In this document: piece after piece, positions 43,231 to 58,201 of the stretch
How positions within the stretch are numbered: position 1 is the first letter of the stretch
Layout: every line of letters starts with the position of its first letter
Sequence record: PP886230
Source of the DNA: Escherichia phage vB_EcoM_E9.1
DNA: 64,000 bases
Direction: 5' to 3' (one strand)
Translations under genes and position numbers: made by a program
Notes under the pieces: model-generated
Databases searched by the model: none
The model's input: only the letters and a program-made list of their open reading frames with translations
What the model was told of the DNA's origin: nothing

Positions 43231-43413
43231 ATGAATAAAGAACATAAAGAATTCTATATACGAAAACTAACATTCGTCCCCGTAAGAATATATAAAGAAT
43301 GCGACCCAAGATTATACCTATGGCACTTCAATGAGTGCATAAAAGATTCTATATACCATAAGAACTATAAAGAACAATTGTGCTCAGTACTAACACTAGT
43401 ACTATCATATTAA
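43231..43413 (+). CDS. small-paralog family member
   Basis: MNKEHKEFYIRKL...FNECIKDSI. Confidence 0.6.
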   Translation: MNKEHKEFYIRKLTFVPVRIYKECDPRLYLWHFNECIKDSIYHKNYKEQLCSVLTLVLSY

Positions 43414-43428
43414 TTAATAGAGAATACT

Positions 43429-43620
43429 ATGTATAAAAACTTCTATATAAGTAAACTAAAAGAAAATGAACAAGTATGGATTAGATCTATAATTCCACTG
43501 GCATTTAATAGATATGCATTTAACAGATGTACCGAGATTGCTATAGACCCTTATAATATTAAAGAGAATGTACAGTATAATCAGTACTACTATATCTTAA
43601 TGCTTATATATAGAAAGTAA
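43429..43620 (+). CDS. small-paralog family member (last)
   Basis: MYKNFYISKL...FNRCTEIAID...LMLIYRK. Confidence 0.6.
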   Translation: MYKNFYISKLKENEQVWIRSIIPLAFNRYAFNRCTEIAIDPYNIKENVQYNQYYYILMLIYRK

Positions 43621-43639
43621 TTAAACACATAGAGACAGG

Positions 43640-43715
43640 GGAAGCTCCTAGTGAACAACCTTTATGTACAGGCGAATTGTTAAAATTCAGCCTGGACAAA
43701 TGCGATCACTAGGAT
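43640..43715 (+). other. long imperfect inverted repeat (possible RNA structure or terminator)
   Basis: ggggaagctcctagtga ... tcactaggattctcccc enclosing an inner caggc/gcctg stem. Confidence 0.4.
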
Positions 43716-44265
43716 TCTCCCCAGGCTAAACCCCGTAATCATAGGTAGTCATAAGTAATCATATATAAACATTTATATGAGCACCGTAGAATCACAGAAT
43801 GATTATATATGATTCAGTACTGATTAGTATAGACAAGATTGCTCAAGAATGCACGGAAATGTGTGTGAATGATTCAGTACTGATATGCCACTAAGTAGGC
43901 AGAGGAAGTCTGCCGTACTTTGTAGTTTCCAAGCTCCTTTTCCATTTTGTAAATTACATCAAATGTAATCAAAAGTAATCACGCAATGATTAGTACTGAA
44001 TTATTACTTTCACCTTAATTACAATTACCCTTTTACCCTTCGGGGTAAAATTCAATTACCCCTTGAGGCTCCAGCAAAAAGTTGGTTAGTACTCCATCCT
44101 AAATCTCGATCCTAAAAATTTTGGAGTACCTATGAAATAAAAGTTGGATCTTCGAAAGTTGAAATTTACGTTGGGACGTTTATGATTTGTGGGATATAAT
44201 GATGTTTGTAGACGGGTAGTTCTCAAGAATATCAGTACTGAATGGTGAAAGAAAGTTATTGACAT

Positions 44266-44296
44266 TATGATTCAGTACTGTATAATGTTTTACATA
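44266..44296 (+). promoter_or_regulatory. sigma70-type promoter with no downstream ORF
   Basis: TTGACA - spacer containing cagtactg - TATAAT, then gttttacat; no ORF over 60 aa for >1 kb. Confidence 0.45.
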
Positions 44297-44599
44297 GAGA
44301 GATGAGTTGCCGCAAACAATTCATTCACTCTACCTCCTGTCGTGAGACAGTACAGAAAGATAGTTCCTCCAATGGGTGGTACATCTTTTTGAACCTCATA
44401 TGAAAATTGTAATAACAGTACTGATATTAACAGAATGGTGTCAGTACTGATTTTAATCTAAAGCATTATGCCACCAGCACAAGCTGGTGGATTCCCTCTA
44501 ACAGTATTCAGTACTACATGATAGTCTTCATCCTCCTAGGGTAACATAGTGAGGGCTATGATGGCAGTACTGAATACTCCCTTTCAAAAGATAGATCTA

Positions 44600-44800
44600 T
44601 GGTATAGTACTGACGGATTTTGGGCGTAGTTACCCTGGATGGATTTTGGACGTAGATATGTCTAGCCCTCCAGAAGTCTGGAAGTAAAGATGGCTATCCA
44701 TCTAGACGGCTAAACGGCTAGATTTCTGGATGGCTAGACGTTTGGACGGCTAAACGGCTAGATGGGTACACGTCTGGAAGTATAGACGGCTAAATCAAAA
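44600..44800. repeat. iteron-like direct repeats
   Basis: gacggctaaacggctagat twice (~44705, ~44745), partial third copy, ctggaagta twice, attttggRcgta repeats. Confidence 0.55.
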
Positions 44801-45410
44801 TTTTATTTTGTTTTTCCAATAGTTCCCCTACCGCGTGGGGATAGTTTCCCCGCAGTATCTGAAGTTAGATTTTTCTGAATCTGGAATCATTATCTTATAA
44901 ACTGGGGGCAATGTCAACGGCCTGGCCGGATATTTTTAAAAATTTTTTCAGTACTGAATTTTGGGCGTAACTATGCACCCGATGGGCTTGAGTCTTTCTC
45001 GACTTGATGGAACTATTATACAGTACTGAAAAAATAAAGCAATACCCTGGAAGCAAAAAAGTTTTAATTAATTTGCTTGCTATCCTGGGCCGGACTATGG
45101 TACTATATTTCAGTACTGAGAAAGTGCGTTTACCTGCTAGGGTGCGGGAGTCTATCCTTTTTTTATATCTTGAATTTTGGACGGATCTTCCCACCCCCTG
45201 GGGTATCCGCTTTCTCGCGTCTATGTAGTAATTATACGCTTTTTCAGGATCAAGTCAATACCTAAAAACAAAATAATTGAAAATAATTTAACGCGTTTAA
45301 ACGGCCCGTAACGCCCTGGATTGTTGGGAGTGGTGCAAATGTATAGCTTAGGTGTATTAATGCGTTAGAATGCGTCTGAGGCCGTTTTATGGGGTGTAGT
45401 AGTGATTTGG

Positions 45411-45503
45411 TTGATTCAGTACTGAATAATAGTACTCCTATATAGAAAGATAGTTCCCCTGGATTGATTCAGTACTGAATAATAGTACTCCTATATAGAA
45501 AGA
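45411..45503. repeat. 40-bp perfect direct repeat x2
   Basis: ttgattcagtactgaataatagtactcctatatagaaaga at ~45411 and ~45464. Confidence 0.7.
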
Positions 45504-45534
45504 AAACTATTTTAAAAGTATTTGTAGAAAGTAC

Positions 45535-45593
45535 TTGCACCGTACTGATAAAAGCGTATAATGTTTTACATCGAGAGCGGGAACACTTCCCGC
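45535..45593 (+). promoter_or_regulatory. PeSL-like cassette: promoter plus 5' stem-loop
   Basis: TTGCAC - 16 nt - TATAAT gttttacatcgaga GCGGGAAcacTTCCCGC. Confidence 0.6.
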
Positions 45594-45617
45594 TACACTT
45601 TAAGAGAGATTAATACG

Positions 45618-45980
45618 ATGGCAACTCAAATCACCAAAATTATTGCTAACCTGGTTAACTTCCGCGACGAGATGAAAGATCTTCCGGCGGCGACGGTTAA
45701 AACTCACATTGACGCATACCGCGAACTGATTAAAATGCTGCCGCTTAAGCGTGAACAATACGCCGCTACCGTGATGCTTGATGCGATGATCCATAAGATG
45801 ATCGCCAGTGATTTGACGATGGTTTATCAGTATATGGGCGAAAATTTCGCGGTGTGTAGTAAGCCAGTACCAGGGATGGCAACAACTGAGGAATTGCACG
45901 GCTTAAACTTAAAACAAGATGCATGGGATAATATGCCTCGTTTCCTGGTATGGGCTGACAGTGGCAAAATTTACAAATAA
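45618..45980 (+). CDS. hypothetical protein (120 aa), GC-richer codon usage
   Basis: ATG after RBS taagagag; track ORF start is an ATG inside the -10 hexamer. Confidence 0.6.
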   Translation: MATQITKIIANLVNFRDEMKDLPAATVKTHIDAYRELIKMLPLKREQYAATVMLDAMIHKMIASDLTMVYQYMGENFAVCSKPVPGMATTEELHGLNLKQDAWDNMPRFLVWADSGKIYK

Positions 45981-45994
45981 GTTTAATAAAGTAC

Positions 45995-46053
45995 TTGCAA
46001 ACTATGTTTAATGGCGTATAATGTTTTACATCAGGTGGGGAATAGTTCCCCAC
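45995..46053 (+). promoter_or_regulatory. PeSL-like cassette
   Basis: TTGCAA .. TATAAT .. GTGGGGAAtagTTCCCCAC. Confidence 0.6.
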
Positions 46054-46075
46054 TATATAAGAGGATTAAAAAAAA

Positions 46076-46315
46076 ATGGCTAAATCAAAAATGTTCTTAG
46101 GTCACAAAAACAAAACTCATTGGAATGTAAGCCTGTGGATTAATAACGATGAGGGATTGTATCGGTTGGCCCTGGACTTTATTGCCGCCAATACTAATCG
46201 CAATGATGCGGCCCGTCATATGATGTTATTTTTAGAACAGACTGGACAAGATAAAACACCGGACGGATTCAAATATAGCACTACTGCGATCCGTGCGGCG
46301 ATGGTTGGAATGTAA
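46076..46315 (+). CDS. hypothetical protein (79 aa)
   Basis: promoter and 5' hairpin upstream; RBS gagga. Confidence 0.55.
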   Translation: MAKSKMFLGHKNKTHWNVSLWINNDEGLYRLALDFIAANTNRNDAARHMMLFLEQTGQDKTPDGFKYSTTAIRAAMVGM

Positions 46316-46403
46316 TAGAATAGAATTTATTTAAAGTACTATTGCACGGGGATAGTACTTTATAATAGTGTTTTATTCATACACCAACGATAAGGGCAAC
46401 AGC

Positions 46404-46670
46404 ATGAATATTAAGTATTTTGCGACGCGTGAACAAGCTCGGATCGCCGCTCGCCAGGACGGGGCAACGTTTAAAGATATGGGCGTACAATCGGAACGTG
46501 GTAAACGTTGGGCCATTGTAAAGCGTAGTACCGCCAGATCATTACAGTACTGGTTAGCGGCCTTAAAAAGTCCCGATAGTGTATCGCGTCGAGTGGTAGA
46601 AATAAAGCTCGACCGAAAGGGCAACCGCGTGACCGTGTACCGTACTAAAAAGATTGCAGTACTTGAATAA
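46404..46670 (+). CDS. hypothetical protein; paralog of 58621 ORF
   Basis: shared KYFATREQARIAAR..TFKDMG..DRKGNRVTVY motifs. Confidence 0.6.
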   Translation: MNIKYFATREQARIAARQDGATFKDMGVQSERGKRWAIVKRSTARSLQYWLAALKSPDSVSRRVVEIKLDRKGNRVTVYRTKKIAVLE

Positions 46671-46677
46671 AAAGTAC

Positions 46678-46736
46678 TTGCAAACTATGTTTAAAGGCGT
46701 ATAATGTTTTACATCGAGAGCGGGAACTCTTCCCGC
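46678..46736 (+). promoter_or_regulatory. PeSL-like cassette
   Basis: TTGCAA .. TATAAT .. GCGGGAActcTTCCCGC. Confidence 0.6.
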
Positions 46737-46757
46737 CTATAACCTGGAGTAATAAAA

Positions 46758-46988
46758 ATGACTAATATGTATATGACTGAAGTTAAAACCGTAAAAGATA
46801 CTACCACGAATAAAACTACTTACTTACAGCGGATCTGTGGTGTATGGCAACGTATCAGCAAATCAAAGTACTTTAAATTAACATCATATGCAAACCGTTC
46901 TGATTCATTCAGTACTGAAATAAAAGGTAATAAAGTACACCAATACGGCACTTATTATTATTACAGCCTGGACGCGATTGCAGTATAA
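46758..46988 (+). CDS. hypothetical protein (76 aa)
   Basis: promoter-hairpin cassette upstream; RBS ggag. Confidence 0.55.
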   Translation: MTNMYMTEVKTVKDTTTNKTTYLQRICGVWQRISKSKYFKLTSYANRSDSFSTEIKGNKVHQYGTYYYYSLDAIAV

Positions 46989-47237
46989 GCAGTTTACAAA
47001 TCTTTACAATTGCCGGTATTGACTTATTTTGTCAGTACTGGCATAATGTATTCATTGGCAGATAAGCCGTAGCCCATAGGGTGCGGGAGTGTATCTATAG
47101 AAAAATTAGTTTAGTATAGTTACAATTGTGCACCCGGTGGGTTAGCTGTTGTCATGGGGTATATTATGCCAGTACTTGATAATGCTGTCAATACTTTTTT
47201 TTACTATCCAGTACAGAAAACTATTTTTAAAAAGTAC

Positions 47238-47384
47238 TTGCAAACTATGTTTAAAGGCGTATAATGTTTTACATCAGGACGGGGGAACGAAATAAGTAAC
47301 TTCCCGTTAAGTAGCCCAGGAGTAAGGCACACGAAAAACTCCCCTGATAAAATAGTTTGACAAATGTTTTTAAAAGCGTATAAT
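47238..47384 (+). promoter_or_regulatory. dual-promoter module with conserved inter-promoter element (copy 1)
   Basis: TTGCAA..TATAAT (47238-47265), ~73-nt element caggacggggg...cccctg, then TTGACA..TATAAT (47357-47384). Confidence 0.55.
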
Positions 47385-47416
47385 ACTTACATCAACTACT
47401 GAATGAGGGTTACAAA

Positions 47417-48028
47417 ATGAAAACTATCACTACTACTACTTTCGTTATGGATTTTTCTGAATTGAACGCAGAACAAAAAACGTCAGCTATCGAACTGGTT
47501 CGGGAACGTGAAAAAAACTCAAACGACAATTATTTTTCTGAAAGTGAAATTGAATACTATAAAGAAACAGTACTACCGGAATATGGCATTAATGACGCTG
47601 AAATACAATTCAGTGGCTTTTGGTCCCAGGGTGACGGTGCATCAATCAGTACTGACCACGTTGACGCAGTGAAGTTTTTACGCAAGGTAAGAGCATTAAC
47701 TAAGTATCGCTCAATCCGTCACTTGCTGAATGAAGATGATTTGGCGATGAGTGTAAAGCGTTCGCACTCCCACTACTCGCATGAGAATACTGTAAGCGGG
47801 TACATTGAATCGGCTTACACTGATTTAACCGCAAAACAAGAAACGTTAGTTAATGAGCTTGAGGAACTACTCACTGATACTATTCGTGAATTGTCCCGCA
47901 AGTTGTACCGTGATTTAGAGAATGCATATGAGGATCAATTCACTACTGAAAACATTACGGCACTGATTGAGGGTAACGAGTATCAATTCAATGTTATTGA
48001 TGGCGTAGTGGAATCAATCGAATATTAA
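47417..48028 (+). CDS. hypothetical protein (203 aa)
   Basis: downstream of dual-promoter module; RBS gaggg. Confidence 0.6.
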   Translation: MKTITTTTFVMDFSELNAEQKTSAIELVREREKNSNDNYFSESEIEYYKETVLPEYGINDAEIQFSGFWSQGDGASISTDHVDAVKFLRKVRALTKYRSIRHLLNEDDLAMSVKRSHSHYSHENTVSGYIESAYTDLTAKQETLVNELEELLTDTIRELSRKLYRDLENAYEDQFTTENITALIEGNEYQFNVIDGVVESIEY

Positions 48029-48040
48029 TTTAAAAAGTAC

Positions 48041-48099
48041 TTGCAAACTAAGTTTAAAAGCGTATAATACTTTATATCGAGAGCGGGAATAGTTCCCGC
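48041..48099 (+). promoter_or_regulatory. PeSL-like cassette
   Basis: TTGCAA .. TATAAT .. GCGGGAAtagTTCCCGC. Confidence 0.6.
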
Positions 48100-48120
48100 T
48101 ACTAATGAGGAATACTACAA

Positions 48121-48285
48121 ATGAATACTTTTACCTTCGCTCAATTGAACGCCCTGGATGTATTGTCTGATGCTTTGCGGGATGCAACTGAAAGCGGTTT
48201 ATTTGACAATGTTGACATTCACCCTGATGTAATTAATAATTTTTGTGATGCTATCGCAGAAGTACTGGAAGATCTAAAAAAATAA
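48121..48285 (+). CDS. hypothetical small protein (54 aa, not in track)
   Basis: ATG after promoter-hairpin cassette and RBS gagg. Confidence 0.5.
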   Translation: MNTFTFAQLNALDVLSDALRDATESGLFDNVDIHPDVINNFCDAIAEVLEDLKK

Positions 48286-48295
48286 TAGAAAGTAC

Positions 48296-48355
48296 TTGCA
48301 ATTAGTTTTTAGTACTGTATAATGTTTTACATAGAGGGGAGAAATGGTTCTCCCT
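48296..48355 (+). promoter_or_regulatory. PeSL-like cassette
   Basis: TTGCAA .. gtactgTATAAT .. GGGGAGAAatggTTCTCCC. Confidence 0.6.
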
Positions 48356-48373
48356 GGTAATGAGGAAAATACA

Positions 48374-48595
48374 ATGGCTAATATCACTACTCTTTCCCAA
48401 CTGGAAGCACTGGTTAAATCTATGCGGGAACATGCCGACAATATCGGCGTAAAAGATCCAGCCGTTTGCTTCTGCGACGAATTGAATGATGATACCCTGG
48501 TAATAGCAGAAGTCCAGGACGTTTCTAACTATTCCTCGCGTTACACTGGCGGCGTAGCAAATAAAGGTGACTTCTGTTTATACCTTACCAAATAA
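48374..48595 (+). CDS. hypothetical protein
   Basis: internal ATG (MANITTLSQ) after RBS; cassette upstream. Confidence 0.55.
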   Translation: MANITTLSQLEALVKSMREHADNIGVKDPAVCFCDELNDDTLVIAEVQDVSNYSSRYTGGVANKGDFCLYLTK

Positions 48596-48763
48596 CAACG
48601 CGGGGAGATAATAACTCCCCGTTACTTTTTCAGTACTGAATCATTTAATAGACGGATCTCGGCACCCGGTGGGTTAGTGACTGTTTCGTCTTGATGTAGT
48701 AATTATGCCAGTACTGGATGCACTTGTCAACAACTATTTTTCAAATACTTTTTATTAAAATAC

Positions 48764-48817
48764 TTGCTAATAGTTTTTAAACGCGTATAATGTTTTGCAT
48801 AGGGGGAGCGGTTCCCC
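48764..48817 (+). promoter_or_regulatory. PeSL-like cassette
   Basis: TTGCTA .. TATAAT .. GGGGAgcgGTTCCCC. Confidence 0.55.
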
Positions 48818-48838
48818 TGGTAACTAAGGAATAATAAA

Positions 48839-49075
48839 ATGCTTGAACAAATCAAATCAACGTCTGCGAATGTAACGGGAACGGTTGTACACTTTACTAG
48901 TGATGAATCGCGGGGCGTTCCCTATTGTGCTGTACATGTAAACACTGATGGCAACTACTGGTTTACGGTTTACGGATCATATTCATTTGGACGACCAGGG
49001 CATCAAAAAATTCTGGATAAAGTACAGCCAACGGGTAAAAATATCACGGCTGAAATGTTTTATAAAAAATCATAA
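48839..49075 (+). CDS. hypothetical protein (78 aa)
   Basis: cassette upstream; RBS aagga. Confidence 0.55.
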   Translation: MLEQIKSTSANVTGTVVHFTSDESRGVPYCAVHVNTDGNYWFTVYGSYSFGRPGHQKILDKVQPTGKNITAEMFYKKS

Positions 49076-49080
49076 AGTAC

Positions 49081-49140
49081 TTGATAATAGTTTTTAGTAC
49101 TGTATAATATTTTACATCGCAAGGGGGTAATGGTTCCCCC
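49081..49140 (+). promoter_or_regulatory. PeSL-like cassette
   Basis: TTGATA .. gtactgTATAAT .. GGGGGTAAtggTTCCCCC. Confidence 0.55.
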
Positions 49141-49160
49141 TGGTAACTAAGGATAATCAA

Positions 49161-49460
49161 ATGAAAGTTGCATTCATCGCCCTGGCTTTATCTGTTTCCT
49201 CTTTTGCTGTTAATGCGTCGTTAGATGTAAGTAGTGAAAAATTCATTCAGTGCACTGTAGCAATGACAGATGAAAGTACTGGCGAGATTGTATTAAAGGA
49301 TCTGGAGATTCAGCCGGAAGCATTTAAAAACGGCCCGTTCCATGAAGAAGACGAAAACGGTAGCACAACAATTTATTATGATGCCAGTACTAAACGCGGG
49401 TCGGTCACTGTTATGGATACTGAGAAAGTAACTCATACTGGCGTTATTAATTGCCGTTGA
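49161..49460 (+). CDS. secreted protein (signal peptide)
   Basis: N-terminus MKVAFIALALSVSSFAVNA. Confidence 0.6.
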   Translation: MKVAFIALALSVSSFAVNASLDVSSEKFIQCTVAMTDESTGEIVLKDLEIQPEAFKNGPFHEEDENGSTTIYYDASTKRGSVTVMDTEKVTHTGVINCR

Positions 49461-49481
49461 TAGATACTACGGGGTAACATC

Positions 49482-49712
49482 ATGACTAAGCGAATTGTTT
49501 TACTTAACGAAAGCAGTACTACACAACTACTTAACGCCGTGCATTATGATATTGAAACGAGCGTTAATCTTATCAGTACTGTAGTACTGTTGGACACTGG
49601 AAAGGTCGCCAATGATAAAGCGATTGCAGGTATACTAACGGATCTTGAGCCTGGTAGCAGTGCACCAATAACGTTAAATGGTAAAGTGTTTAATATTTTA
49701 CTCACTGATTAA
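49482..49712 (+). CDS. hypothetical protein (76 aa)
   Basis: ORF followed by intrinsic terminator. Confidence 0.55.
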   Translation: MTKRIVLLNESSTTQLLNAVHYDIETSVNLISTVVLLDTGKVANDKAIAGILTDLEPGSSAPITLNGKVFNILLTD

Positions 49713-49718
49713 GTACAT

Positions 49719-49742
49719 AGCCCACCTGGTGGGCTTTTTTGT
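49719..49742 (+). terminator. intrinsic terminator
   Basis: agcccacctggtgggct + T-run. Confidence 0.7.
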
Positions 49743-49943
49743 TTTTGTAGTATCGTAGTACTGAGATACTTTGAAAATAGTTTTAAAAAAGTAGTTGACA
49801 TTACCGCAGAAAAGCGTAGAATGTATTACATCAAGACGGGGAGCACTAAGTAGACCGCCAGTAAGTCGAACGAAAAACTGGACACGTCGAGAAAACTTTG
49901 ATACACTAATAAACGTAAACTAAACTTTAATTGAGGATTTATA

Positions 49944-50426
49944 ATGGCTAATGTAAAATCATTCATCAAAGCACTGGTAGCAAATGAAACTAACGTCGCG
50001 GCTGAGATCCTGGCTGAACTGGATAACGATACCATGAAAGCGGTACGCAATAATTTTAACATCGCGTACAGTACTGCGAAAGAACTACAAGCAAATAAAG
50101 CGGCAGAAATTGAAGCGGCAAAGGCGGCCCGTGAAGCAGAACTACAAGCAACAATCGAAAGTATCCAGGCGGCGGTGTCTGGATTGGATCTGGAAGTGGT
50201 TGTGGAAATGGCACATAAAGCCCTGGCGGTTAAGTATGGTGAAGATAAGCCAGAATCTAAACCCAAAAAATGGATTCAGGAACGCGTAGCGGTAGTACTG
50301 GACAACGGGGAAGAATATCTGATTCCGGTGCGTGGTAACTGTATTGCGGTAGTACTGGACGCTATCAAAGAAAGCGGTATGACTCGCGAGGAATGGATCG
50401 AAGCTCATCGCAAAGTTGAAGCATAA
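49944..50426 (+). CDS. hypothetical protein (160 aa), Ala/Glu-rich helical
   Basis: long 5' leader after promoter at ~49795; RBS gagga; terminator downstream. Confidence 0.6.
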   Translation: MANVKSFIKALVANETNVAAEILAELDNDTMKAVRNNFNIAYSTAKELQANKAAEIEAAKAAREAELQATIESIQAAVSGLDLEVVVEMAHKALAVKYGEDKPESKPKKWIQERVAVVLDNGEEYLIPVRGNCIAVVLDAIKESGMTREEWIEAHRKVEA

Positions 50427-50447
50427 CAATTAAAGTACTGAATCACT

Positions 50448-50473
50448 AGCCCACTGTATAAGTGGGCTTTTTT
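50448..50473 (+). terminator. intrinsic terminator
   Basis: agcccactgtataagtgggct + tttttt. Confidence 0.7.
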
Positions 50474-50637
50474 GTGTTTATCGTTTACCAGGCCACCAGC
50501 ACCGCCTAGAAACGATTCTAACGCATTAAACGGATTATCTGATGCATTGCCCTAGCTGGTGGCGTTAAGGCTGTAAGAACGCGATTGAGAGCGTTTAAAG
50601 TATTTTGCAAAAAGTAATAAAAAGTACTTGAACGATT

Positions 50638-50687
50638 AAGAGATTAGCGTATAATGTTTTACATCGAGAGGGGGAAACGGTTCTCCT
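50638..50687 (+). promoter_or_regulatory. PeSL-like cassette
   Basis: TTGAAC .. TATAAT .. GAGGGGGAAacggTTCTCC. Confidence 0.55.
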
Positions 50688-50710
50688 TCCAAATCAAAGG
50701 AATCAAAACA

Positions 50711-50938
50711 ATGGCTATTATCATTACTCGCGTATCTGGTACTACTGGCAACGAACAAGTAGTTGCAGTCATTACGAACAAGGCAGGTGCGGAATTGCAA
50801 AATGCAATGAATACCTGGGCCGTTAATGAGTTCGGTCAGTGGGCAAGTGTAGCATACATTGAAACCTATCAAGTGCCGTCGATTAGTTTAACTGATTTGG
50901 GCGTTGAGCGTATCCTTTGCCTTGATGAATTAAATTAA
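50711..50938 (+). CDS. hypothetical protein
   Basis: internal ATG (MAIIITRV) after RBS aagga. Confidence 0.55.
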   Translation: MAIIITRVSGTTGNEQVVAVITNKAGAELQNAMNTWAVNEFGQWASVAYIETYQVPSISLTDLGVERILCLDELN

Positions 50939-50946
50939 AAAAGTAC

Positions 50947-51006
50947 TTGCAAAGTAAATCGAATAAAGTATAATACATTACATCAAGGGGAGAAATGGTT
51001 CTCCCC
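50947..51006 (+). promoter_or_regulatory. PeSL-like cassette
   Basis: TTGCAA .. TATAAT .. GGGGAGAAatggTTCTCCCC. Confidence 0.6.
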
Positions 51007-51023
51007 ACTACAAGGAAACTAAA

Positions 51024-51236
51024 ATGGCTATCATTACTAAAATCAAAGTTAGTAAATCACTGGTTAAACTTGAAGAAGTGAAAGAAGGTTATAAAGTATC
51101 TTGGTGCGGTATGTATCGGACGTTCGCAGATATAGATGATGCGATCAATTATTACACTGACACGGTTAAAAACTTTGTTCGTGCTGATGTGGTTATGGCA
51201 GTGGCAACATATAAAGCATCAAAAGAAAGTAAGTAA
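51024..51236 (+). CDS. hypothetical protein; N-terminus resembles 54180 ORF
   Basis: MAII.K start; cassette upstream. Confidence 0.55.
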   Translation: MAIITKIKVSKSLVKLEEVKEGYKVSWCGMYRTFADIDDAINYYTDTVKNFVRADVVMAVATYKASKESK

Positions 51237-51317
51237 AAATATTATCACAGTACTATTGACATAGTTTGATAGTACTGGCATAATAACTTTTATCAAGACA
51301 ACTAAGAGGAAATTAAA

Positions 51318-51662
51318 ATGGCTAACATCAATACTATAGCAGCACAAAATATCAACCTGTCTTCTGTTGAAGTTGTACATATTGCCGCTCGGCGTTGGTT
51401 CCAGGCTTCATATGGTAACACTTATTTCTCTTTAAGTGTAGACGTAGAAATTGATGGTAATTTTATTGAAGTAGTAAACGTGCCGTTCCAATATGGATAC
51501 GGGGATCATTTTGACACTGTAGCAATGGAAGAATTTAGCAAGGTTATTAATATGGAAGGTAAAGAGTTTTTACGCGGTTCTTATCTTTCCCGTTTTTGCC
51601 GTGATAATAATATCACTGTTTATAGTTCTGTTAGTGATGTTAAACGCAAAAAAGATCTTTAA
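51318..51662 (+). CDS. hypothetical protein; paralog of 58202 ORF
   Basis: shared RW..GNTY...YGYG...VKRKKD motifs. Confidence 0.6.
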   Translation: MANINTIAAQNINLSSVEVVHIAARRWFQASYGNTYFSLSVDVEIDGNFIEVVNVPFQYGYGDHFDTVAMEEFSKVINMEGKEFLRGSYLSRFCRDNNITVYSSVSDVKRKKDL

Positions 51663-51742
51663 TTAGCTTTACTTTATGCAGATACTTTGATATAGTGTCT
51701 GCATAGGGGAAAGAAATTAAATTAACTTAAGAGGATAGTATA

Positions 51743-52012
51743 ATGAAAAATATCAGTACTTTAATCGATGCAGGTACTCATGTTCGTCGGTCTATGGTTG
51801 CAACCAGTACTACAAAACAAGTAGCGAGCGGTTATCTTGTATTTGTGCACGATGGTAAACTCCTGGAACGTTCAATCAATTTTGATGTTAAAAACAATTG
51901 CCGTTTTATTATCTTTAAGCGTGAGCAATATAAAATTGATTTACCAGCAAAGCCCATTAGTGGGGCGTACAACGTGCAATCATTGTTTGAACGTCAACCA
52001 TACACCTATTAA
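51743..52012 (+). CDS. hypothetical protein (89 aa)
   Basis: RBS agagga. Confidence 0.5.
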   Translation: MKNISTLIDAGTHVRRSMVATSTTKQVASGYLVFVHDGKLLERSINFDVKNNCRFIIFKREQYKIDLPAKPISGAYNVQSLFERQPYTY

Positions 52013-52063
52013 TCAAAACATCGTTAGCGGTCGATTCAGGCCGCTTATATTGGGGATTATACC

Positions 52064-52336
52064 ATGAACGTTAATCAAGTACTGAATGAGATCGAAAGCA
52101 TCATTAAACCGATGAAGCGTACTGATGCTATGTTAACACCGGAAGAATGCCGCCTTTATGAGCGTTACAGCGTCGAACAAGTCCAGGCAATGGCTATGGC
52201 TACCCCAGCCGTTAAACCGCCTGAGAATGCGTTACAGGACGTTACAGGGGATTATATCATCAATCCAGTACTAGGGAAGATGGCTGCAATCACCGAAGAT
52301 CAACAAGACTACTTAAGCCAGTACTTAAAAGGTTAA
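52064..52336 (+). CDS. hypothetical protein (90 aa)
   Basis: ORF with RBS. Confidence 0.5.
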   Translation: MNVNQVLNEIESIIKPMKRTDAMLTPEECRLYERYSVEQVQAMAMATPAVKPPENALQDVTGDYIINPVLGKMAAITEDQQDYLSQYLKG

Positions 52337-52341
52337 TTAAT

Positions 52342-52551
52342 ATGCTTACTGTACAGGATAAGATCGACATCTTAAAGGTTAATATGTATGTGATTGATGC
52401 AGAACCTGGTAAAGTATTTGCATACGATGATAGTACTGTAAGCGATTTCTACTATAGCCAGGCCGTGGGGGATCTTTCTGTACAGTCGGTTATTGAAAAC
52501 GTAGTTAATGCAGCGTATGAGCATTTACTTTCAAATAGTACTTGCAATTAG
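52342..52551 (+). CDS. hypothetical protein (69 aa)
   Basis: ORF. Confidence 0.5.
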   Translation: MLTVQDKIDILKVNMYVIDAEPGKVFAYDDSTVSDFYYSQAVGDLSVQSVIENVVNAAYEHLLSNSTCN

Positions 52552-52600
52552 TTTTTAAACGCGTATAATGTTTTACATCGAGAGCGGGAATAGTTCCCGC
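52542..52600 (+). promoter_or_regulatory. PeSL-like cassette
   Basis: TTGCAA .. TATAAT .. GCGGGAAtagTTCCCGC. Confidence 0.6.
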
Positions 52601-52621
52601 CTCACTTTTAAGGAATATGAA

Positions 52622-52768
52622 ATGAAAGCATCAAAAAAGAGTACTAACAAGAAAGCACGTTCAACCTTAGATGGGGTATTCCCTTTACGTTTCGTTGATG
52701 AAGTGGTTTCCTACCCGCCTGGCCTTACTCCTGAGATGGTAGAAAGTTTGCGTAAATCTAAAAAATAG
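52622..52768 (+). CDS. hypothetical small basic protein
   Basis: internal ATG (MKASKKSTNK) after RBS aagga. Confidence 0.5.
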   Translation: MKASKKSTNKKARSTLDGVFPLRFVDEVVSYPPGLTPEMVESLRKSKK

Positions 52769-52771
52769 TAC

Positions 52772-52831
52772 TTGCAATTAGTTTTTAGTACTGTATAATG
52801 TTTTACATGAAGGGGAGAAATGATTCTCCCC
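52772..52831 (+). promoter_or_regulatory. PeSL-like cassette
   Basis: TTGCAA .. gtactgTATAAT .. GGGGAGAAatgaTTCTCCCC. Confidence 0.6.
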
Positions 52832-52849
52832 AATAACAGGAGAAACAAA

Positions 52850-53002
52850 ATGAAACAATACAACGCTCGGTTTGATGTTACTATCGGTAACGGCAAAGGT
52901 CAATTCTCTTTCAGTACTCGCCGCAGTTATACAGAAAACTTCCTGCGTAATTGTGCATTGACCGCCGCTCAAATTAAACATTATTTTCAGGCTAAAAAAT
53001 GA
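52850..53002 (+). CDS. hypothetical small protein
   Basis: internal ATG (MKQYNARF) after RBS aggaga. Confidence 0.5.
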   Translation: MKQYNARFDVTIGNGKGQFSFSTRRSYTENFLRNCALTAAQIKHYFQAKK

Positions 53003-53088
53003 GATCATTAGCTTATTACAGTTCGGCCCTGGTCGGTGCATTGATCGCGGCGTTGTTAGTAACCTATCTATTCTTTATGGTGATTTAA
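52999..53088 (+). CDS. small hydrophobic peptide (29 aa)
   Basis: ATGA overlap with upstream stop; single TM-like helix; not in track. Confidence 0.4.
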   Translation: MRSLAYYSSALVGALIAALLVTYLFFMVI

Positions 53089-53226
53089 ATGAATCCTAAC
53101 GGTATAATTTACAGTACTCCTAAAACGAAAGCAGACAAGGTAAACGCTAAAAAAGCGAAAGTAAAGGAGTACATCAAACAAGGAATGACACGAAAGGCGG
53201 CGATTCTAAAAGCTAAAAATAAATGA
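53089..53226 (+). CDS. small Lys-rich peptide (45 aa)
   Basis: TAAATG overlap; not in track. Confidence 0.35.
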   Translation: MNPNGIIYSTPKTKADKVNAKKAKVKEYIKQGMTRKAAILKAKNK

Positions 53227-53230
53227 AAAA

Positions 53231-53264
53231 GTGGTTGACTTCGGTCAGCCATTTTGCTATTATA
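53231..53264 (+). terminator. terminator/promoter hybrid element (second-half variant)
   Basis: TGGTTGACttcgGTCAGCCAtttt GC TATTAT. Confidence 0.55.
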
Positions 53265-53367
53265 TATTCATTGAGAGATAGCTCACTAGCCCACAGGGTG
53301 CAGGAGTGTATCTATTGTATAATGTTTGAGTACTGAAAACTATTTTAAAGTATTTGATAAAAAGTAC

Positions 53368-53426
53368 TTGCAAACTATCTCAATAAGCGTATAATGTTTT
53401 ACATCGCAAGGGGAAACGGTTTCCCC
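53368..53426 (+). promoter_or_regulatory. PeSL-like cassette
   Basis: TTGCAA .. TATAAT .. GGGGAAAcggTTTCCCC. Confidence 0.6.
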
Positions 53427-53446
53427 TAGTAATAAGGAAACGAATC

Positions 53447-53788
53447 ATGACTATCTCAATTGCTCAATCTAACTTTGAAAATGAAATCATCGCCCAGGCA
53501 CTGCGTTTAAATGATGGTCGGGCCGAAATCAATTACGGTTTCAATTCAGGCGGTTGTGAAAAATATCAGTACTTTGTAACGGCTGATGGCGGTGTACTGG
53601 GCATCAATACAGTTATTGTAAACATACAGAAAATTAATTTCAATGATCCAGACGATAGCCAGTTTTACATCACTGGCGTAGACGTGAACTATGAGGATGA
53701 CTCACTAACTGATGACCACACTGGCGAGAAGTTAGAAAGTGCATACGGTGAAGATGATTATCAGTCCGGTCCAGAAGATTTCGAATAA
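53447..53788 (+). CDS. hypothetical acidic protein (113 aa)
   Basis: cassette upstream; RBS aagga. Confidence 0.55.
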   Translation: MTISIAQSNFENEIIAQALRLNDGRAEINYGFNSGGCEKYQYFVTADGGVLGINTVIVNIQKINFNDPDDSQFYITGVDVNYEDDSLTDDHTGEKLESAYGEDDYQSGPEDFE

Positions 53789-53802
53789 TATTAAAAAATA
53801 GT

Positions 53803-53862
53803 TTGACAATAGATTATAGTACTGTATAATAGTTTACATCAAGGGGAGAAAAACTTCTCCCC
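53803..53862 (+). promoter_or_regulatory. PeSL-like cassette
   Basis: TTGACA .. gtactgTATAAT .. GGGGAGAAaaacTTCTCCCC. Confidence 0.6.
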
Positions 53863-53884
53863 ACTAACAGAGAGAGAAAACAAA

Positions 53885-54097
53885 ATGGCTAATATCCGGT
53901 CGAAATTAAAAAATGCAAAACAAGTTTTATTTTCAGATCATGAATACTTTAATAAAGATATTACAGGAGTTACAAGTATCAAGGAAGTAAAAGAAAAAAC
54001 CGGCGTTTTGTGTGATGTGCGATTAGTTGGGACATTTGGGAATAACGTGCTATATCGCTGTGGTGATTACAATTTTACACTGACTATCATTAACTAA
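53885..54097 (+). CDS. hypothetical protein (70 aa)
   Basis: cassette upstream; RBS agagag. Confidence 0.55.
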   Translation: MANIRSKLKNAKQVLFSDHEYFNKDITGVTSIKEVKEKTGVLCDVRLVGTFGNNVLYRCGDYNFTLTIIN

Positions 54098-54179
54098 AAA
54101 TATTATCACAGTACTATTGACATAGTTTGATAGTACTGACATAATAACTTTTATCAACTACACTACTAAGGAATTAAAA

Positions 54180-54359
54180 ATGGCTATCATCGCAAAAACT
54201 GAAATCATCGGCCTGGATTCTATCATCATGACGTTTGAAGATCAAAAAGGTATGTATGTGGTTTCCTATGGTGATTATGTTCGGGAGTATGAAACGGTAG
54301 ACGAAGCCTTTGAAAGTTACATTCGCCAGGTGAATAAAGCATACGACGACTACCGCTAA
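54180..54359 (+). CDS. hypothetical protein (59 aa, not in track)
   Basis: MAIIAKTEIIGLDS; promoter TTGACA..CATAAT upstream; RBS aagga. Confidence 0.5.
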   Translation: MAIIAKTEIIGLDSIIMTFEDQKGMYVVSYGDYVREYETVDEAFESYIRQVNKAYDDYR

Positions 54360-54458
54360 AATATATTACCAGTACTATTAAAGATATTGACAACGTTTGA
54401 TAGTACTGTATAATAAGTTTTATAAACAGTAGTTAACTTAACCTAAGAGAGAAATAAA

Positions 54459-54602
54459 ATGATCGCACTGGATTCATTCATCGACGCAGTACTGGCAAAA
54501 ACTGGCGAGGATCTGACCGCAGAACAATACGCGATGATCGAACAATGTCAACAGGACGGTAAATCGGTGAAAGATACTGTTAAGATTATCCGCAAGATGT
54601 AA
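54459..54602 (+). CDS. hypothetical small protein (47 aa, not in track)
   Basis: promoter plus RBS agagag; terminator hairpin downstream. Confidence 0.45.
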   Translation: MIALDSFIDAVLAKTGEDLTAEQYAMIEQCQQDGKSVKDTVKIIRKM

Positions 54603-54608
54603 GATTAT

Positions 54609-54637
54609 AGCCCACTGGTTAACGCTGGTGGGCTTTA
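54609..54637 (+). terminator. terminator hairpin containing a Chi octamer
   Basis: agcccactggttaacGCTGGTGGgcttt. Confidence 0.5.
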
Positions 54638-54707
54638 ATTCATTACCCTATACAATGCCAGTACTAAACCGTTTATCTCGTTAGAATGCGTTACAGGACG
54701 TTTACCA

Positions 54708-54905
54708 ATGATTAGCATGAAATCAGTACAAAAACAAATAGAAACATTATCAAAAATTAAACGTAAACAGTACTCCTTAGAATATACAATCAATGGTAAC
54801 TATCATCTAATGAAAGAAAATAATTTTATAGTCATTGATGAATCATTGCAAATCATTAGTATAGTACTGAAAGCATTAATCAATGACAGAAAAAAATTAA
54901 AATAA
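54708..54905 (+). CDS. hypothetical protein (65 aa)
   Basis: ORF. Confidence 0.45.
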   Translation: MISMKSVQKQIETLSKIKRKQYSLEYTINGNYHLMKENNFIVIDESLQIISIVLKALINDRKKLK

Positions 54906-55236
54906 ACTATTGACAATATCATCCAGCACTGGCATAATACTTACACCAAGACGAGAACGTCACTAACCCATAGGGTGCACAAATGTAACTGTATAATATT
55001 GATCAAAAAATGATCTGATCAATACTTGATCAATTTGCGTAAAGTAGTATAATTCTATGCAGTTGGTTAGACGAAAGGTTATGATTAGTAGTGCAAGTGT
55101 ATAAAAATTTTCATGGTGTATCGTTCCGCACATATGGGGATGAATATGTGGTATCATGTGGATTGGAAAAAGTAAGAACAAGTAATATTATTGTCGCATT
55201 ACAGTACTATAGTATTTTTATAATGAGGTTAAAATA

Positions 55237-55494
55237 ATGGCTGTAGGATTCGCGAAAGATGGGGCCGAGCAAGACGAGATTAACGCAGTGATTCAGGCCG
55301 CCGTTAACCACGCTAGAAAGCAAATTAACGCACAAATAGAATCACTGATACATTGCCTCGACTGCGGCGATATAATCCCTGAGAAACGACGCCAGGCCGT
55401 TAAGGGATGTAAGTACTGCATAACTTGCCAGGAGGATCATGATAGTACTTTTAAACGTCCCCCGCGTAATTGTTGGCATAGATCTATGAGATAA
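55237..55494 (+). CDS. TraR/DksA-family C4 zinc-finger protein
   Basis: CLDCGDIIPEKRRQAV..CKYCITCQE matches the TraR C-x2-C-x17-C-x2-C finger and basic PE.RR motif. Confidence 0.7.
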   Translation: MAVGFAKDGAEQDEINAVIQAAVNHARKQINAQIESLIHCLDCGDIIPEKRRQAVKGCKYCITCQEDHDSTFKRPPRNCWHRSMR

Positions 55495-55500
55495 AAAGTA

Positions 55501-55528
55501 TTGACAGTACTGAAAGATAGTGTATAAT
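55501..55528 (+). promoter_or_regulatory. sigma70-type promoter upstream of GNAT-like gene
   Basis: TTGACA - 16 nt - TG-TATAAT. Confidence 0.55.
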
Positions 55529-55557
55529 GTTTTATATCTTAACTGAGGATAGTAATC

Positions 55558-55914
55558 ATGGGAATACAACATATCACGCGTACTACTGACAATGGCGAGA
55601 TCACTGGCTATCAAGTACAGGGCAAAGTAGCACAATTGCAGTACTGGTTTGTGAAACGTGGAATCATTGCACCGGATCTTGATTATGACCGTGTAGCGTT
55701 TATTGATTCTCTTTATGTTGATCCTGATAGTCGGGGCAATGGTGAAGGTAACGAATTAATGAATGCCTTTATTGATGCCGCCGATGATTCAGATTGTATC
55801 ATTTTAGAATGCGATACGGGAGAAGATAACGCCTTTAATCTTAAAGAATGGTACGAAGGTTTCGGATTCGAGGTACTGATCGATAGTGAATATCCTATCA
55901 TGATTTTATCATAG
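55558..55914 (+). CDS. GNAT-like acetyltransferase domain protein
   Basis: LYVDPDSRGNGEGNELM resembles GNAT motif A (R-G-x-G-x-G); C-terminal YEGFGF. Confidence 0.5.
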   Translation: MGIQHITRTTDNGEITGYQVQGKVAQLQYWFVKRGIIAPDLDYDRVAFIDSLYVDPDSRGNGEGNELMNAFIDAADDSDCIILECDTGEDNAFNLKEWYEGFGFEVLIDSEYPIMILS

Positions 55915-55992
55915 TACTTGCATTTAGTTTTCAGTACTGTTATAGTACTTGCATCAAGGGGAAACATCTTCCCCTACTAAGAGGAAATAAAA

Positions 55993-56181
55993 ATGGAAAA
56001 CTTATCAAGTATTTTAGTACAAGATGATTTCGGTAATCCTGGAAGTGCTATCATTGTTCGGGGTAATAAAGCAACGTTTGTTATTGCTGGTGGACCAGTA
56101 CAGCGTAGCATTAAAAATAATGCTGTTACCATTAATAATGTACGCTATCGCTTAGATAAAGAATTGATTCATAAACTGTAA
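55993..56181 (+). CDS. hypothetical protein (62 aa)
   Basis: cassette upstream; RBS agagga. Confidence 0.55.
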   Translation: MENLSSILVQDDFGNPGSAIIVRGNKATFVIAGGPVQRSIKNNAVTINNVRYRLDKELIHKL

Positions 56182-56208
56182 TATTAATTTAATAGAGGAT
56201 AACAATAA

Positions 56209-56532
56209 ATGTACATTCATACTACTATCACAAAGGAAGTCCGTTGCCAGTTCGAAAGTATTCCGGGCGTATGTTTCATCACTGGTACGTTTTCCCCTGG
56301 TGATCGTGATAATCCAGTACTGTTACAATTACGCCATCCATCATGGGATAAAGCATTTGATCTACCGTTGAATGAATTCGCAACTACTGCTGAAAAGTAC
56401 ATTAAAAATATTCGCGAGAATGATCGACTATTCATTAATGCTTTTAGTGATTCCGCGTTAAGCGAGATCCACGGCGTATTGGTTGCAATCATGGAATCAA
56501 TGCAGAAAACTAAATTCAAACAAGGTGAATAA
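56209..56532 (+). CDS. hypothetical protein (107 aa)
   Basis: RBS gagga. Confidence 0.55.
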   Translation: MYIHTTITKEVRCQFESIPGVCFITGTFSPGDRDNPVLLQLRHPSWDKAFDLPLNEFATTAEKYIKNIRENDRLFINAFSDSALSEIHGVLVAIMESMQKTKFKQGE

Positions 56533-56538
56533 AAACTA

Positions 56539-56598
56539 TTGACAATGCAACCCAGTACTGTATAATAGTTTACATGAAGGGGAGAAATGATTCTCCCC
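56539..56598 (+). promoter_or_regulatory. PeSL-like cassette
   Basis: TTGACA .. gtactgTATAAT .. GGGGAGAAatgaTTCTCCCC. Confidence 0.6.
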
Positions 56599-56615
56599 AC
56601 TGAGAGGAAAGAAAA

Positions 56616-56828
56616 ATGCAAGGTCAACTAATCGTTCGTAAATGGTCTGATACTAACGAAAAACCGTGGGATGTACAATACATCGGACCGGATGGGGTAT
56701 CACGTTATCAGCCTGGCGTAACGCATAGTACTGAGCAATATGCCGCCGCTCACCGCGAACGCCTGTTAGAATCCATGAAACAGGGATTCTGTGAAAAATT
56801 CATTCAAGATCATTGGCTGAAAGATTAA
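56616..56828 (+). CDS. hypothetical protein (70 aa)
   Basis: cassette upstream; RBS gagagga. Confidence 0.55.
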   Translation: MQGQLIVRKWSDTNEKPWDVQYIGPDGVSRYQPGVTHSTEQYAAAHRERLLESMKQGFCEKFIQDHWLKD

Positions 56829-56845
56829 TAGAAGGAGTACAGCTT

Positions 56846-56938
56846 ATGCAAATGAATCCGATGATTATTGTTTTAGCTGTACTTATGATCATTCATGCAA
56901 TTGTAGAAGTATTAACGCAATCAGGAGTAATAAAATGA
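56846..56938 (+). CDS. small hydrophobic peptide (30 aa)
   Basis: RBS aggag; single TM-like helix; not in track. Confidence 0.4.
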   Translation: MQMNPMIIVLAVLMIIHAIVEVLTQSGVIK

Positions 56939-57108
56939 TTCAAGTAGAATTATCAGTACTGAAAGATCTGTTTTATCGGTTAGGTACTACTGGAGAGTAT
57001 CCTAAAAGTGATACCGCAAAACTTTTTGTATCACTCGACTTATGGCAACGCGAACAATTAGTAATGTCCTGGCGTAAAGGTAAAGCAGATCGCGAGGTGA
57101 AAGCATGA
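56935..57108 (+). CDS. hypothetical small protein (57 aa)
   Basis: ATGA overlap; not in track. Confidence 0.4.
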   Translation: MIQVELSVLKDLFYRLGTTGEYPKSDTAKLFVSLDLWQREQLVMSWRKGKADREVKA

Positions 57109-57254
57109 AAGAATTCTTATTCGAAGTAGTGTTTCAAGGTGTCGGTAGTAACCAACTGATTCGCTCAAGTGGTTACAATGTTAACCAGGCATGGAATAAC
57201 ATTAAACAAATGTACCCGAACGCTATCACCTATCGCAACCCGAAAGAAGTTTAA
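57105..57254 (+). CDS. hypothetical small protein (49 aa)
   Basis: ATGA overlap; not in track. Confidence 0.4.
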   Translation: MKEFLFEVVFQGVGSNQLIRSSGYNVNQAWNNIKQMYPNAITYRNPKEV

Positions 57255-57267
57255 AAATATTTGAAAA

Positions 57268-57303
57268 AGGGATTGACTCCGGTCAGTCCCTTTGCTATTA
57301 TAT
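57268..57303 (+). terminator. terminator/promoter hybrid element (second-half variant)
   Basis: GGGATTGACtccgGTCAGTCCCttt GC TATTAT. Confidence 0.55.
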
Positions 57304-57391
57304 ACGCATAGAAACAATTCAGCCCACCGGGTGCATAAATGTATCTATTATATGCTGGTGGCTAGTACTGAAAACTATTTTTAAAAAGTAC

Positions 57392-57535
57392 TTGCATTGT
57401 ATTTAGAATCAAGTATAATGTTTTACATCAGGACGGGGAACGAAACAAGTAACCCCGTTAAGTAGTCCAGGAGTAAGACATACGAAAACCTCCCCTGATA
57501 AAATAGTTTGACAATAGAAATTAAACGAGTATAAT
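57392..57535 (+). promoter_or_regulatory. dual-promoter module with conserved inter-promoter element (copy 2)
   Basis: TTGCAT..TATAAT, element caggacgggg...cccctg (~57429-57496), TTGACA..TATAAT. Confidence 0.55.
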
Positions 57536-57567
57536 ACTTACATCAACCACTGATAAGGAAACATAAA

Positions 57568-57843: not shown

Positions 57844-57846
57844 GTA

Positions 57847-57908: not shown

Positions 57909-57930
57909 TAACTAAAAGAGAGAAATAAAA

Positions 57931-58113: not shown

Positions 58114-58116
58114 GTA

Positions 58117-58179: not shown

Positions 58180-58201
58180 TAACAAAGAGAGAGAAATAAA
58201 A

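Follow-up and report, generated by a model that had tools for sequence, protein, structure and literature searches.

What does a perfect 40-bp direct repeat do in front of the first gene of a phage terminal repeat? The question arises in a stretch of 64,000 nucleotides from Escherichia phage vB_EcoM_E9.1 (sequence record PP886230), the whole of which is referred to here as the window. The initial annotation of this DNA had described a perfect 40-bp duplication with a 13-bp gap, and both the coordinates and the description prove exact. The 40-mer TTGATTCAGTACTGAATAATAGTACTCCTATATAGAAAGA is present in two copies that are 100% identical (Table 1), separated by the 13-bp TAGTTCCCCTGGA, which gives a start-to-start period of 53 bp. 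When up to 3 mismatches are allowed, the window holds two matches to the 40-mer only, those at 45411 and 45464, and 100 dinucleotide-preserving shuffles yielded none. The repeat is absent from the list produced by Tandem Repeats Finder at default settings. Elsewhere in the window there is a perfect 77-bp tandem duplication, at 19827-19982 (2.0 copies, 100% match).

Each 40-bp unit contains two AGTACT sites. The first lies within a 14-bp perfect palindrome, ATTCAGTACTGAAT, and the second follows 13 bp downstream (45431-45436 in unit 1, 45484-45489 in unit 2). A motif of the spacer, ATAGTTCCCC, recurs at 44821, 44841 and 44360, and in some relatives it takes the place of AGTACTCC in unit 2. The two palindromes can pair with each other in single strand (-11.9 kcal/mol, z = -2.6), but any two palindrome copies can pair in this way, and single-strand structure was accordingly set aside as a special feature. 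An Rfam scan of positions 43400-45800 at E<=1 gave no match, and a tRNA scan of the window found none. A coding element was rejected because a 23-aa GTG ORF alone overlaps the repeat and because the indels of 13, 53 and 66 bp seen in relatives are not multiples of 3. A host origin was rejected too, since blastn of a 141-bp segment spanning the repeat against 5,426 complete E. coli genomes gave no match. Nor did a search of IMG/VR contigs for an exact 34-mer yield any match, so that the comparison of the repeat draws entirely on GenBank phages.

Table 1. Features of the repeat locus and its surroundings, in window coordinates.
Feature	Position	Strand	Details
Left physical genome end, start of terminal repeat	43894..43914	+	AGTAGGCAGAGGAAGTCTGCC; starts of related records
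Inverted 19-mer core	45010..45028	-	CAGTACTGTATAATAGTTC; spacer/-10 of leftward promoter TTGCTT-16-TATAAT
Second inverted 19-mer core	45100..45118	-	CAGTACTGAAATATAGTAC; without -35 element
Divergent promoter, sigma70-type (predicted)	45231..45258	-	TTGACT-16-TATAAT, 11/12
Repeat unit 1, 40 bp	45411..45450	+	TTGATT + CAGTACTG + AATAAT + AGTACT + CCTATATAGAAAGA
14-bp perfect palindrome, unit 1	45414..45427		ATTCAGTACTGAAT; AGTACT at 45418-45423
Spacer, 13 bp	45451..45463	+	TAGTTCCCCTGGA; part of 53-bp period
Repeat unit 2, 40 bp	45464..45503	+	identical to unit 1
14-bp perfect palindrome, unit 2	45467..45480		ATTCAGTACTGAAT; AGTACT at 45471-45476
UP-element-like A/T-rich stretch of P1	45504..45529	+	AAACTATTTTAAAAGTATTTGTAGAA; 100% conserved in 16 aligned genomes
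Promoter P1, sigma70-type (predicted)	45530..45562	+	AGTACT, -35 TTGCAC, 16-nt spacer, -10 TATAAT
Hairpin	45576..45594	+	AGCGGGAA-CAC-TTCCCGCT; 5' end of predicted P1 transcript
First terminal-repeat protein gene	45618..45980	+	120 aa; PHROG 7352 (unknown function); no Pfam match

The position of the repeat within the phage genome can be read from its relatives. Megablast of positions 44400-46400 matched 75 phage records, the best of them, at 85-96% identity, being PBECO4, SP27, JP4, 121Q and other members of Asteriusvirus, a genus of E. coli and Salmonella jumbo phages of about 350 kb. On these matches the window is assigned to a PBECO4/121Q-like jumbo coliphage of this genus, with a genome of ~350 kb. 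The records of vB_Ec-M-J, CRJP21 and fEgEco12, which represent physical ends, all start at the base matching window 43894. Since three records start there, this base is the left genome end and the start of a direct terminal repeat of ~21 kb, to which the window from 43894 to its last base belongs. A direct terminal repeat is annotated at 1-21525 in the vB_Ec-M-J record; fEgEco12 has direct terminal repeats of 20,993 bp, its ends confirmed by PhageTerm and restriction digests (PMC13070987), and the terminal repeat of Sharanji measures 20,668 bp (PMC11895373). The 40-bp repeat stands ~1.5 kb from the start of the terminal repeat, and the 1.9 kb around it (43621-45560) are non-coding, no credible ORF being present. 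Directly after the left end comes a hairpin, GGCAGA-ggaag-TCTGCC, and before the end lie two TGATTCAGTACTGAT sites, at 43810 and 43870.

The terminal repeat is also rich in Chi. The octamer GCTGGTGG is present in 10 copies on the + strand of the window, where base composition predicts about 0.2; nine lie in the terminal-repeat part, all with the same orientation (Chi range 44483-62632), and a Chi/anti-Chi inverted pair, CCACCAGCacaaGCTGGTGG, is found at 44471-44490, about 580 bp from the left end. The early region of Cronobacter phage GAP32, a member of another genus, is likewise Chi-rich (9806-23257). This richness may shield the genome ends against RecBCD.

Immediately downstream of the repeat is P1, predicted to be a strong sigma70-type promoter of the first gene; among the early promoters within the left direct terminal repeat it is the first that is gene-proximal. 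From the end of the repeat it is 26 bp to the -35 region of P1 (AGTACTTGCA) and 114 bp to the ATG at 45618, in agreement with the annotated place of the repeat just upstream of the first gene. Within P1, AGTACT (45530-45535) abuts the -35 hexamer (45535-45540), and the -10 hexamer occupies 45557-45562. Transcription is predicted to start near 45568, relative to which the two units lie at about -157 to -118 and -104 to -65. The A/T-rich stretch AAACTATTTTAAAAGTATTTGTAGAA is presumably UP-like, as judged by its match to the UP consensus of Estrem et al. 1998 as cited in PMC5259590. A degenerate copy of the P1 -35 region (AGTATTTGTA, 45517-45526) lies inside this stretch, 13 bp upstream. The program-made ORF list extends the first gene to an ATG at 45561; the start was placed at 45618 because the former codon lies inside the -10 hexamer and several relatives annotate the latter. 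PHROG assigns each of the neighbouring genes to a family of unknown function, and one of them has a DUF7249 Pfam match. The hairpin design of 45576-45594 also follows about 30 early promoters in the window, whose predicted transcripts open with a conserved (G/A)TTT(T)ACAT leader and then a G/C-rich hairpin, for example AGCGGGAAcacTTCCCGCT. This leader hairpin may be a stabilising 5' stem-loop.

On its other side the repeat faces the divergent promoter, between which and P1 it stands. Further transcription signals surround it. A perfect-consensus promoter lies at 44259-44286 on the + strand (TTGACA-16-TATAAT, 12/12), 365 bp from the genome end. Downstream of it every ORF is shorter than 40 aa, one of 33 aa being possible by eye, and two CAGTACTG sites form a terminator-like hairpin at 44416-44449. 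The product of this promoter may be a small RNA or a peptide. Paralogous small units on the minus strand (45258 to 45100, 47190 to 47100, 48750 to 48630, about 57352 and about 60348) interleave with the + strand early genes; each combines a sigma70-type promoter of its own with a hairpin of the GCACCC…GGGTGC type and lacks an ORF. These may be antisense or small RNAs.

The comparison with related genomes which the initial annotation had proposed is informative, since it shows the two-unit form to be an allele of an array that varies in copy number. The orthologous array segment was extracted from 22 relatives, making 23 genomes with the window. Large units number 1-3 per genome, with two in most, the 13-bp sub-unit AGTACTGAATRAT is present in 0-5 copies, and AGTACT sites upstream of P1 number 2-7, so that every one of the 23 genomes has at least two. 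Three large units are found in JNE01, a single unit in each of G17, UB and A4, and a rearranged unit in 121Q, while SHEFM2K has four successive AGTACT sites at 13-bp spacing. Among the fetched genomes, two perfect 40-mers are present in the window, PBECO4, JP4, WPEC3, EC.P1 and UE-S1; SD-1_S14 and BAU.Micro_ELP-22 match the window at 100% identity across 141 bp, which brings the genomes with two perfect units to 8. In SP27, CRJP21, fEgEco12, Ecwhy_1 and SD-15_S21, unit 2 differs at 3-4 bases, at its 5' edge only. In an alignment of 16 genomes the flanking non-coding DNA shows 96-100% identity, and the whole 1.2-kb non-coding stretch is as conserved as the units, so that the conservation of the units has no discriminating power. 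The promoter AGTACT at -35 is 46, 47, 56 or 59 bp away from the last AGTACT of the array, depending on the genome, and because this distance varies among alleles there is no conserved helical phasing. The orthologous region of GAP32 keeps P1, the divergent promoter and other non-coding blocks; the module is absent between its two promoters, which makes the array specific to Asteriusvirus. Its absence there, together with the single-unit and rearranged alleles of G17, UB, A4 and 121Q, indicates that the duplication is dispensable.

Among the families in which membership was considered, the repeat has the properties of a variable tandem repeat (VNTR or minisatellite) only: the units lie head to tail at a 53-bp period, AGTACTGAATRAT is tandem in relatives, and copy number differs among close relatives within conserved flanks. 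Variable copy number with constant flanks points to a hotspot of slippage or unequal recombination with occasional homogenisation. The repeat is thus a duplication, as had been suggested, but the suggestion that it is recent is half right, the two-unit form being common to most of the genus. The 5'-edge differences of unit 2 in some genomes suggest repeated slippage or homogenisation and not one fresh event. A further proposal made for the locus was a recombination site; no evidence was found for one, understood as a site-specific recombination target.

The sequence of the units connects them with the promoters of the phage. The 5' half of the unit, TTGATTCAGTACTGAATAAT, matches the spacer and -10 of the promoter at 44259-44286 (ATGATTCAGTACTGTATAAT) at 18 of 19 bases, and the units share …GATTCAGTACTG-[T/A]ATAAT-AGT… with the phage's own early promoter cores. 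The 19-mer core CAGTACTGAATAATAGTAC has two further copies, both inverted (Table 1).

The hexamer that recurs in the units is itself unusual. No other hexamer of the window comes near AGTACT in over-representation: base composition predicts 21.6 copies and 291 are present (13-fold), and its one-off variants have 14-56 copies only. The flanks of AGTACT in the window give the consensus TTCAGTACTGAA, and CAGTACTG is present in 63 copies against 0.86 expected. AGTACT occurs in all three reading frames (84/62/42), at a density of 3.6 per kb in ORFs versus 8.4 per kb outside. Within ORFs, 177 copies are observed against 50 +/- 6 after synonymous-codon shuffling within each ORF, a procedure which preserves proteins and codon usage, and control hexamers fall near expectation. 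In the comparison with 121Q (93.7% identity over the aligned part), the proportion of fully conserved hexamers is 87% for AGTACT and 76% overall, a difference whose sign is the same in each of three sub-regions. Copies number 119 against 16.9 expected (7-fold) in the first 50 kb of Klebsiella phage RaK2, and 253 against 16.7 (15-fold) in the first 50 kb of GAP32. These counts lead us to regard AGTACT as under selection at the DNA level.

AGTACT also holds fixed positions in early promoters. Counted from the first base of the -10 hexamer, it starts at -27 in 17 of 43 promoter-like sites in the window (AGTAC/TTGCAA), at -7 in 10 (AGTACTG/TATAAT) with 3 more at -8, and at -17 in 3 (TTGAC/AGTACT). 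These registers are spaced by 10 bp, and some promoters carry two sites. The observation covers about 35 promoters in window 45500-63200, and GAP32 promoters have the same AGTACT peaks, at -27/-28 and -7/-8. If at most one mismatch is allowed, the window has 4 instances of AGTACT-N7-AGTACT, every one of them located in 45099-45535; the expectation of 0.22 comes from dinucleotide shuffles in which AGTACT frequency is unpreserved, and the significance is therefore overstated. Searches of the literature on AGTACT in phages and jumbo phages and on Asteriusvirus and RaK2-like promoters turned up no account of the motif, its register arrangement or the repeat, and AGTACT occurs 0 times in PMC5259590, which treats the promoters of CBB and GAP32. 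Among other palindromes, GGTACC and CGTACG are absent from the window although GTAC has 646 copies, and all eight G/C-only 6-bp palindromes are absent as well.

Three known sites were compared with the unit. The LexA box is CTG-N10-CAG, the trp operator GTACT-N8-AGTAC and the SlmA site GTGAGTACTCAC. The first was rejected because the unit has CTG-N10-CTC, the second because it has GTACT-N7-AGTAC, with a spacing one base short, and the third because it requires G at -1 and C at +1 of AGTACT, bases that are under-represented at these positions (9% and 7%).

How, then, is the repeat best explained? Comparison of the sequences identifies it as the two-unit allele of a variable array of AGTACT modules derived from promoter cores, upstream of the first early promoter and within the terminal repeat. 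Through slippage or unequal recombination the array gains and loses 13 bp (AGTACTGAATRAT), 53 bp or 66 bp at a time, and the same processes keep its copies identical in some lineages. The reading that joins this array to a proposed role of its modules, as additional binding sites that would influence P1 or the divergent promoter, has a probability of roughly 0.55. Most likely the array would supply extra putative sites for whatever reads (C)AGTACT(G), given the apparent DNA-level selection on AGTACT and its fixed registers in early promoters. The putative reader may be the host RNA polymerase holoenzyme or a dimeric DNA-binding protein of phage or host, the dimeric protein being ranked likelier because the site is a palindrome, a ranking that the statistics of the flanking bases do not decide. 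Binding at the array would modulate P1, the divergent promoter or both, and would tolerate changes in copy number and spacing. Such tolerance to copy number and to 13-bp shifts fits a loose role, as a local sink or nucleation site, or none. The earlier notion of a regulatory binding-site pair survives in part: the position of the repeat and its AGTACT content are compatible with it, but the variation in 13-bp steps speaks against a strictly phased pair. A phased operator or class I activator pair was rejected on account of the four promoter distances found among genomes.

It may be asked whether the array has any role. It could be a neutral, slippage-prone relic of duplicated promoter fragments, the identity of its copies reflecting recent slippage or gene conversion. 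This is consistent with the free variation of copy number and internal structure within the genus, single-unit genomes included, with the lack of a module at the orthologous place in GAP32, with the unconserved phasing to P1 and with the failure of the units to satisfy the rules for a sigma70 promoter, set out below. Yet at least two AGTACT sites upstream of P1 have been kept in 23 of 23 genomes, the surrounding non-coding DNA is strongly constrained, and AGTACT itself appears to be under DNA-level selection. A neutral origin is on balance unlikely, albeit a serious contender.

Auxiliary sites within a promoter-derived array can also be pictured more narrowly. The repeat might be a dense landing pad for a putative dimeric protein recognising the palindrome TTCAGTACTGAA, whose core shows an enrichment of about 7- to 15-fold across three genera of Rak2-like jumbo phages, is kept up within the genes of the window through the choice of synonymous codons, and forms part of early promoters, at 10-bp registers, in both the window and GAP32. 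We put this forward tentatively, as a rather doubtful possibility. If it were true, AGTACT would be the cis element of a clade-wide, undescribed genome-marking or transcription-timing system, and the array before the first early promoter would be the strongest local site of that system.

Could the units themselves be promoters? They might be weak tandem promoters lacking a -35 element, directed toward gene 1, or promoters that become active after modification of the host polymerase by the phage. In support of this, the GATTCAGTACTG-[T/A]ATAAT-AGT element is common to genuine cores, and scoring of 128,000 positions with a weight matrix derived from ten promoter cores puts the units at ranks 25-26, in the top 0.02%. 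Their matrix score is 8.4, however, versus 31-38 for the ten training promoters, a rough comparison given the small set. Furthermore, a consensus scan for sigma70-type promoters, defined by -35-like and -10-like hexamers 16-18 nt apart with A2 and T6 in the -10, called no promoter in 45411-45503 on either strand. The -10-like AATAAT of the unit has no -35 element 16-18 nt upstream, and the alternative pair TTGATT…TATATA is separated by a 22-nt spacer. By these measures the units are promoter-core derivatives and not promoters by the usual rules, and promoter activity of their own is improbable.

A function at the genome end would be a different solution. The units might be terminus-proximal sites for terminase or end processing, for the initiation of replication or for the control of DNA entry. 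The exact sequence TGATTCAGTACTG occurs 7 times in the 64 kb, 5 of them within 43810-45477, twice just left of 43894 (43810 and 43870) and once per unit, and the conserved non-coding block adjoins the end. Against this, the units lie 1.5 kb inside the end, the right terminal-repeat boundary of fEgEco12 lacks a matching site arrangement, no DnaA boxes (TTWTNCACA) are present in 43600-45600, and both copy-number variation and absence from GAP32 oppose an essential packaging or origin signal. Replication-origin iterons were rejected on the same lack of TTWTNCACA, together with the presence of two copies only and of neighbours without known function. An end-related role of the repeat is thus very improbable, all the more as a better candidate is to be found in a conserved 8-bp-periodic array at 44700-44795. 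It comprises about 12 units resembling CTAGACGG/AGACGTTT, for which Tandem Repeats Finder gives periods of 16, 32 and 40, and it is conserved between Asteriusvirus and GAP32 (GAP32 3467-3595). This array, which we take to resemble tandem MetJ 'met boxes' or iterons, is a candidate for an origin or a packaging signal; the region has no exact copy of the MetJ box AGACGTCT.

An assembly artefact, whether a spurious duplication or a collapsed array, which had been named as the outcome that would overturn the repeat, can practically be dismissed, as the 141-bp segment with two perfect units is identical in PBECO4, SD-1_S14, BAU.Micro_ELP-22, JP4 and WPEC3, two perfect units are also found in EC.P1 and UE-S1, and the structure recurs base for base in at least 6 independently assembled genomes.

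The array of promoter-derived AGTACT modules invites comparison with several known systems. Among these are the early promoters of T4, the PN25-type promoters of T5 and the left-end promoters A1-A3 of T7. As in those phages, a strong sigma70-type promoter stands near the genome end, with UP-like A/T-rich DNA upstream (predicted here), extra conserved bases around the -35 and -10, and promoter-like sequences reiterated upstream of the first early gene; the CTGTATAATAG… core resembles T5 PN25. Unlike those promoters, the two units break the -35/-10 spacing rules, and the extra element is the palindromic AGTACT at -27, -17 and -7. Operator and activator arrays, such as lambda OR1-3, tandem MetJ or TrpR boxes and class I CRP sites, offer a second parallel: here too, palindromic cores are set in direct order before a promoter, and the 53-bp spacing of the units amounts to about five helical turns. 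In contrast to phased operators and class I sites, copy number and promoter distance vary by 13 bp among close relatives, and, unlike the lambda, MetJ, TrpR and CRP arrays, this one has no known cognate protein. A third parallel is with minisatellites, with which the array shares nested periods (13 bp and 53 or 66 bp), polymorphic copies and near-invariant flanks. In contrast to an anonymous minisatellite unit, this unit is built from a phage promoter core and a selected palindrome.

Closer relatives of the phage provide the same class of promoter. In CBB and GAP32, which are Rak2-like, RpoD-like promoters with UP-like elements have been described in a region of short early genes that reaches the terminal repeat (PMC5259590), and GAP32 has orthologues of both P1 and the divergent promoter. 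No repeat array upstream of the first promoter is mentioned in PMC5259590, and the module is absent in GAP32. Overall, the array seems most like reiterated promoter- or operator-type elements in its presumed working and most like a minisatellite in its evolution.

As a repeat, the feature is ordinary: taken alone it is a small polymorphic intergenic array of modest practical value. It could serve to type Asteriusvirus strains, and its copies may be miscounted during assembly. Through it, the first early promoter and the left genome end are located in 1.9 kb of unannotated DNA. Of greater interest is the AGTACT signal found throughout the clade; the array is its densest local cluster and thus a pointer to a palindrome that appears to be selected across Rak2-like jumbo phages. 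Naming the reader of AGTACT would explain the organisation of early transcription in these 350-kb phages, and would aid promoter engineering.
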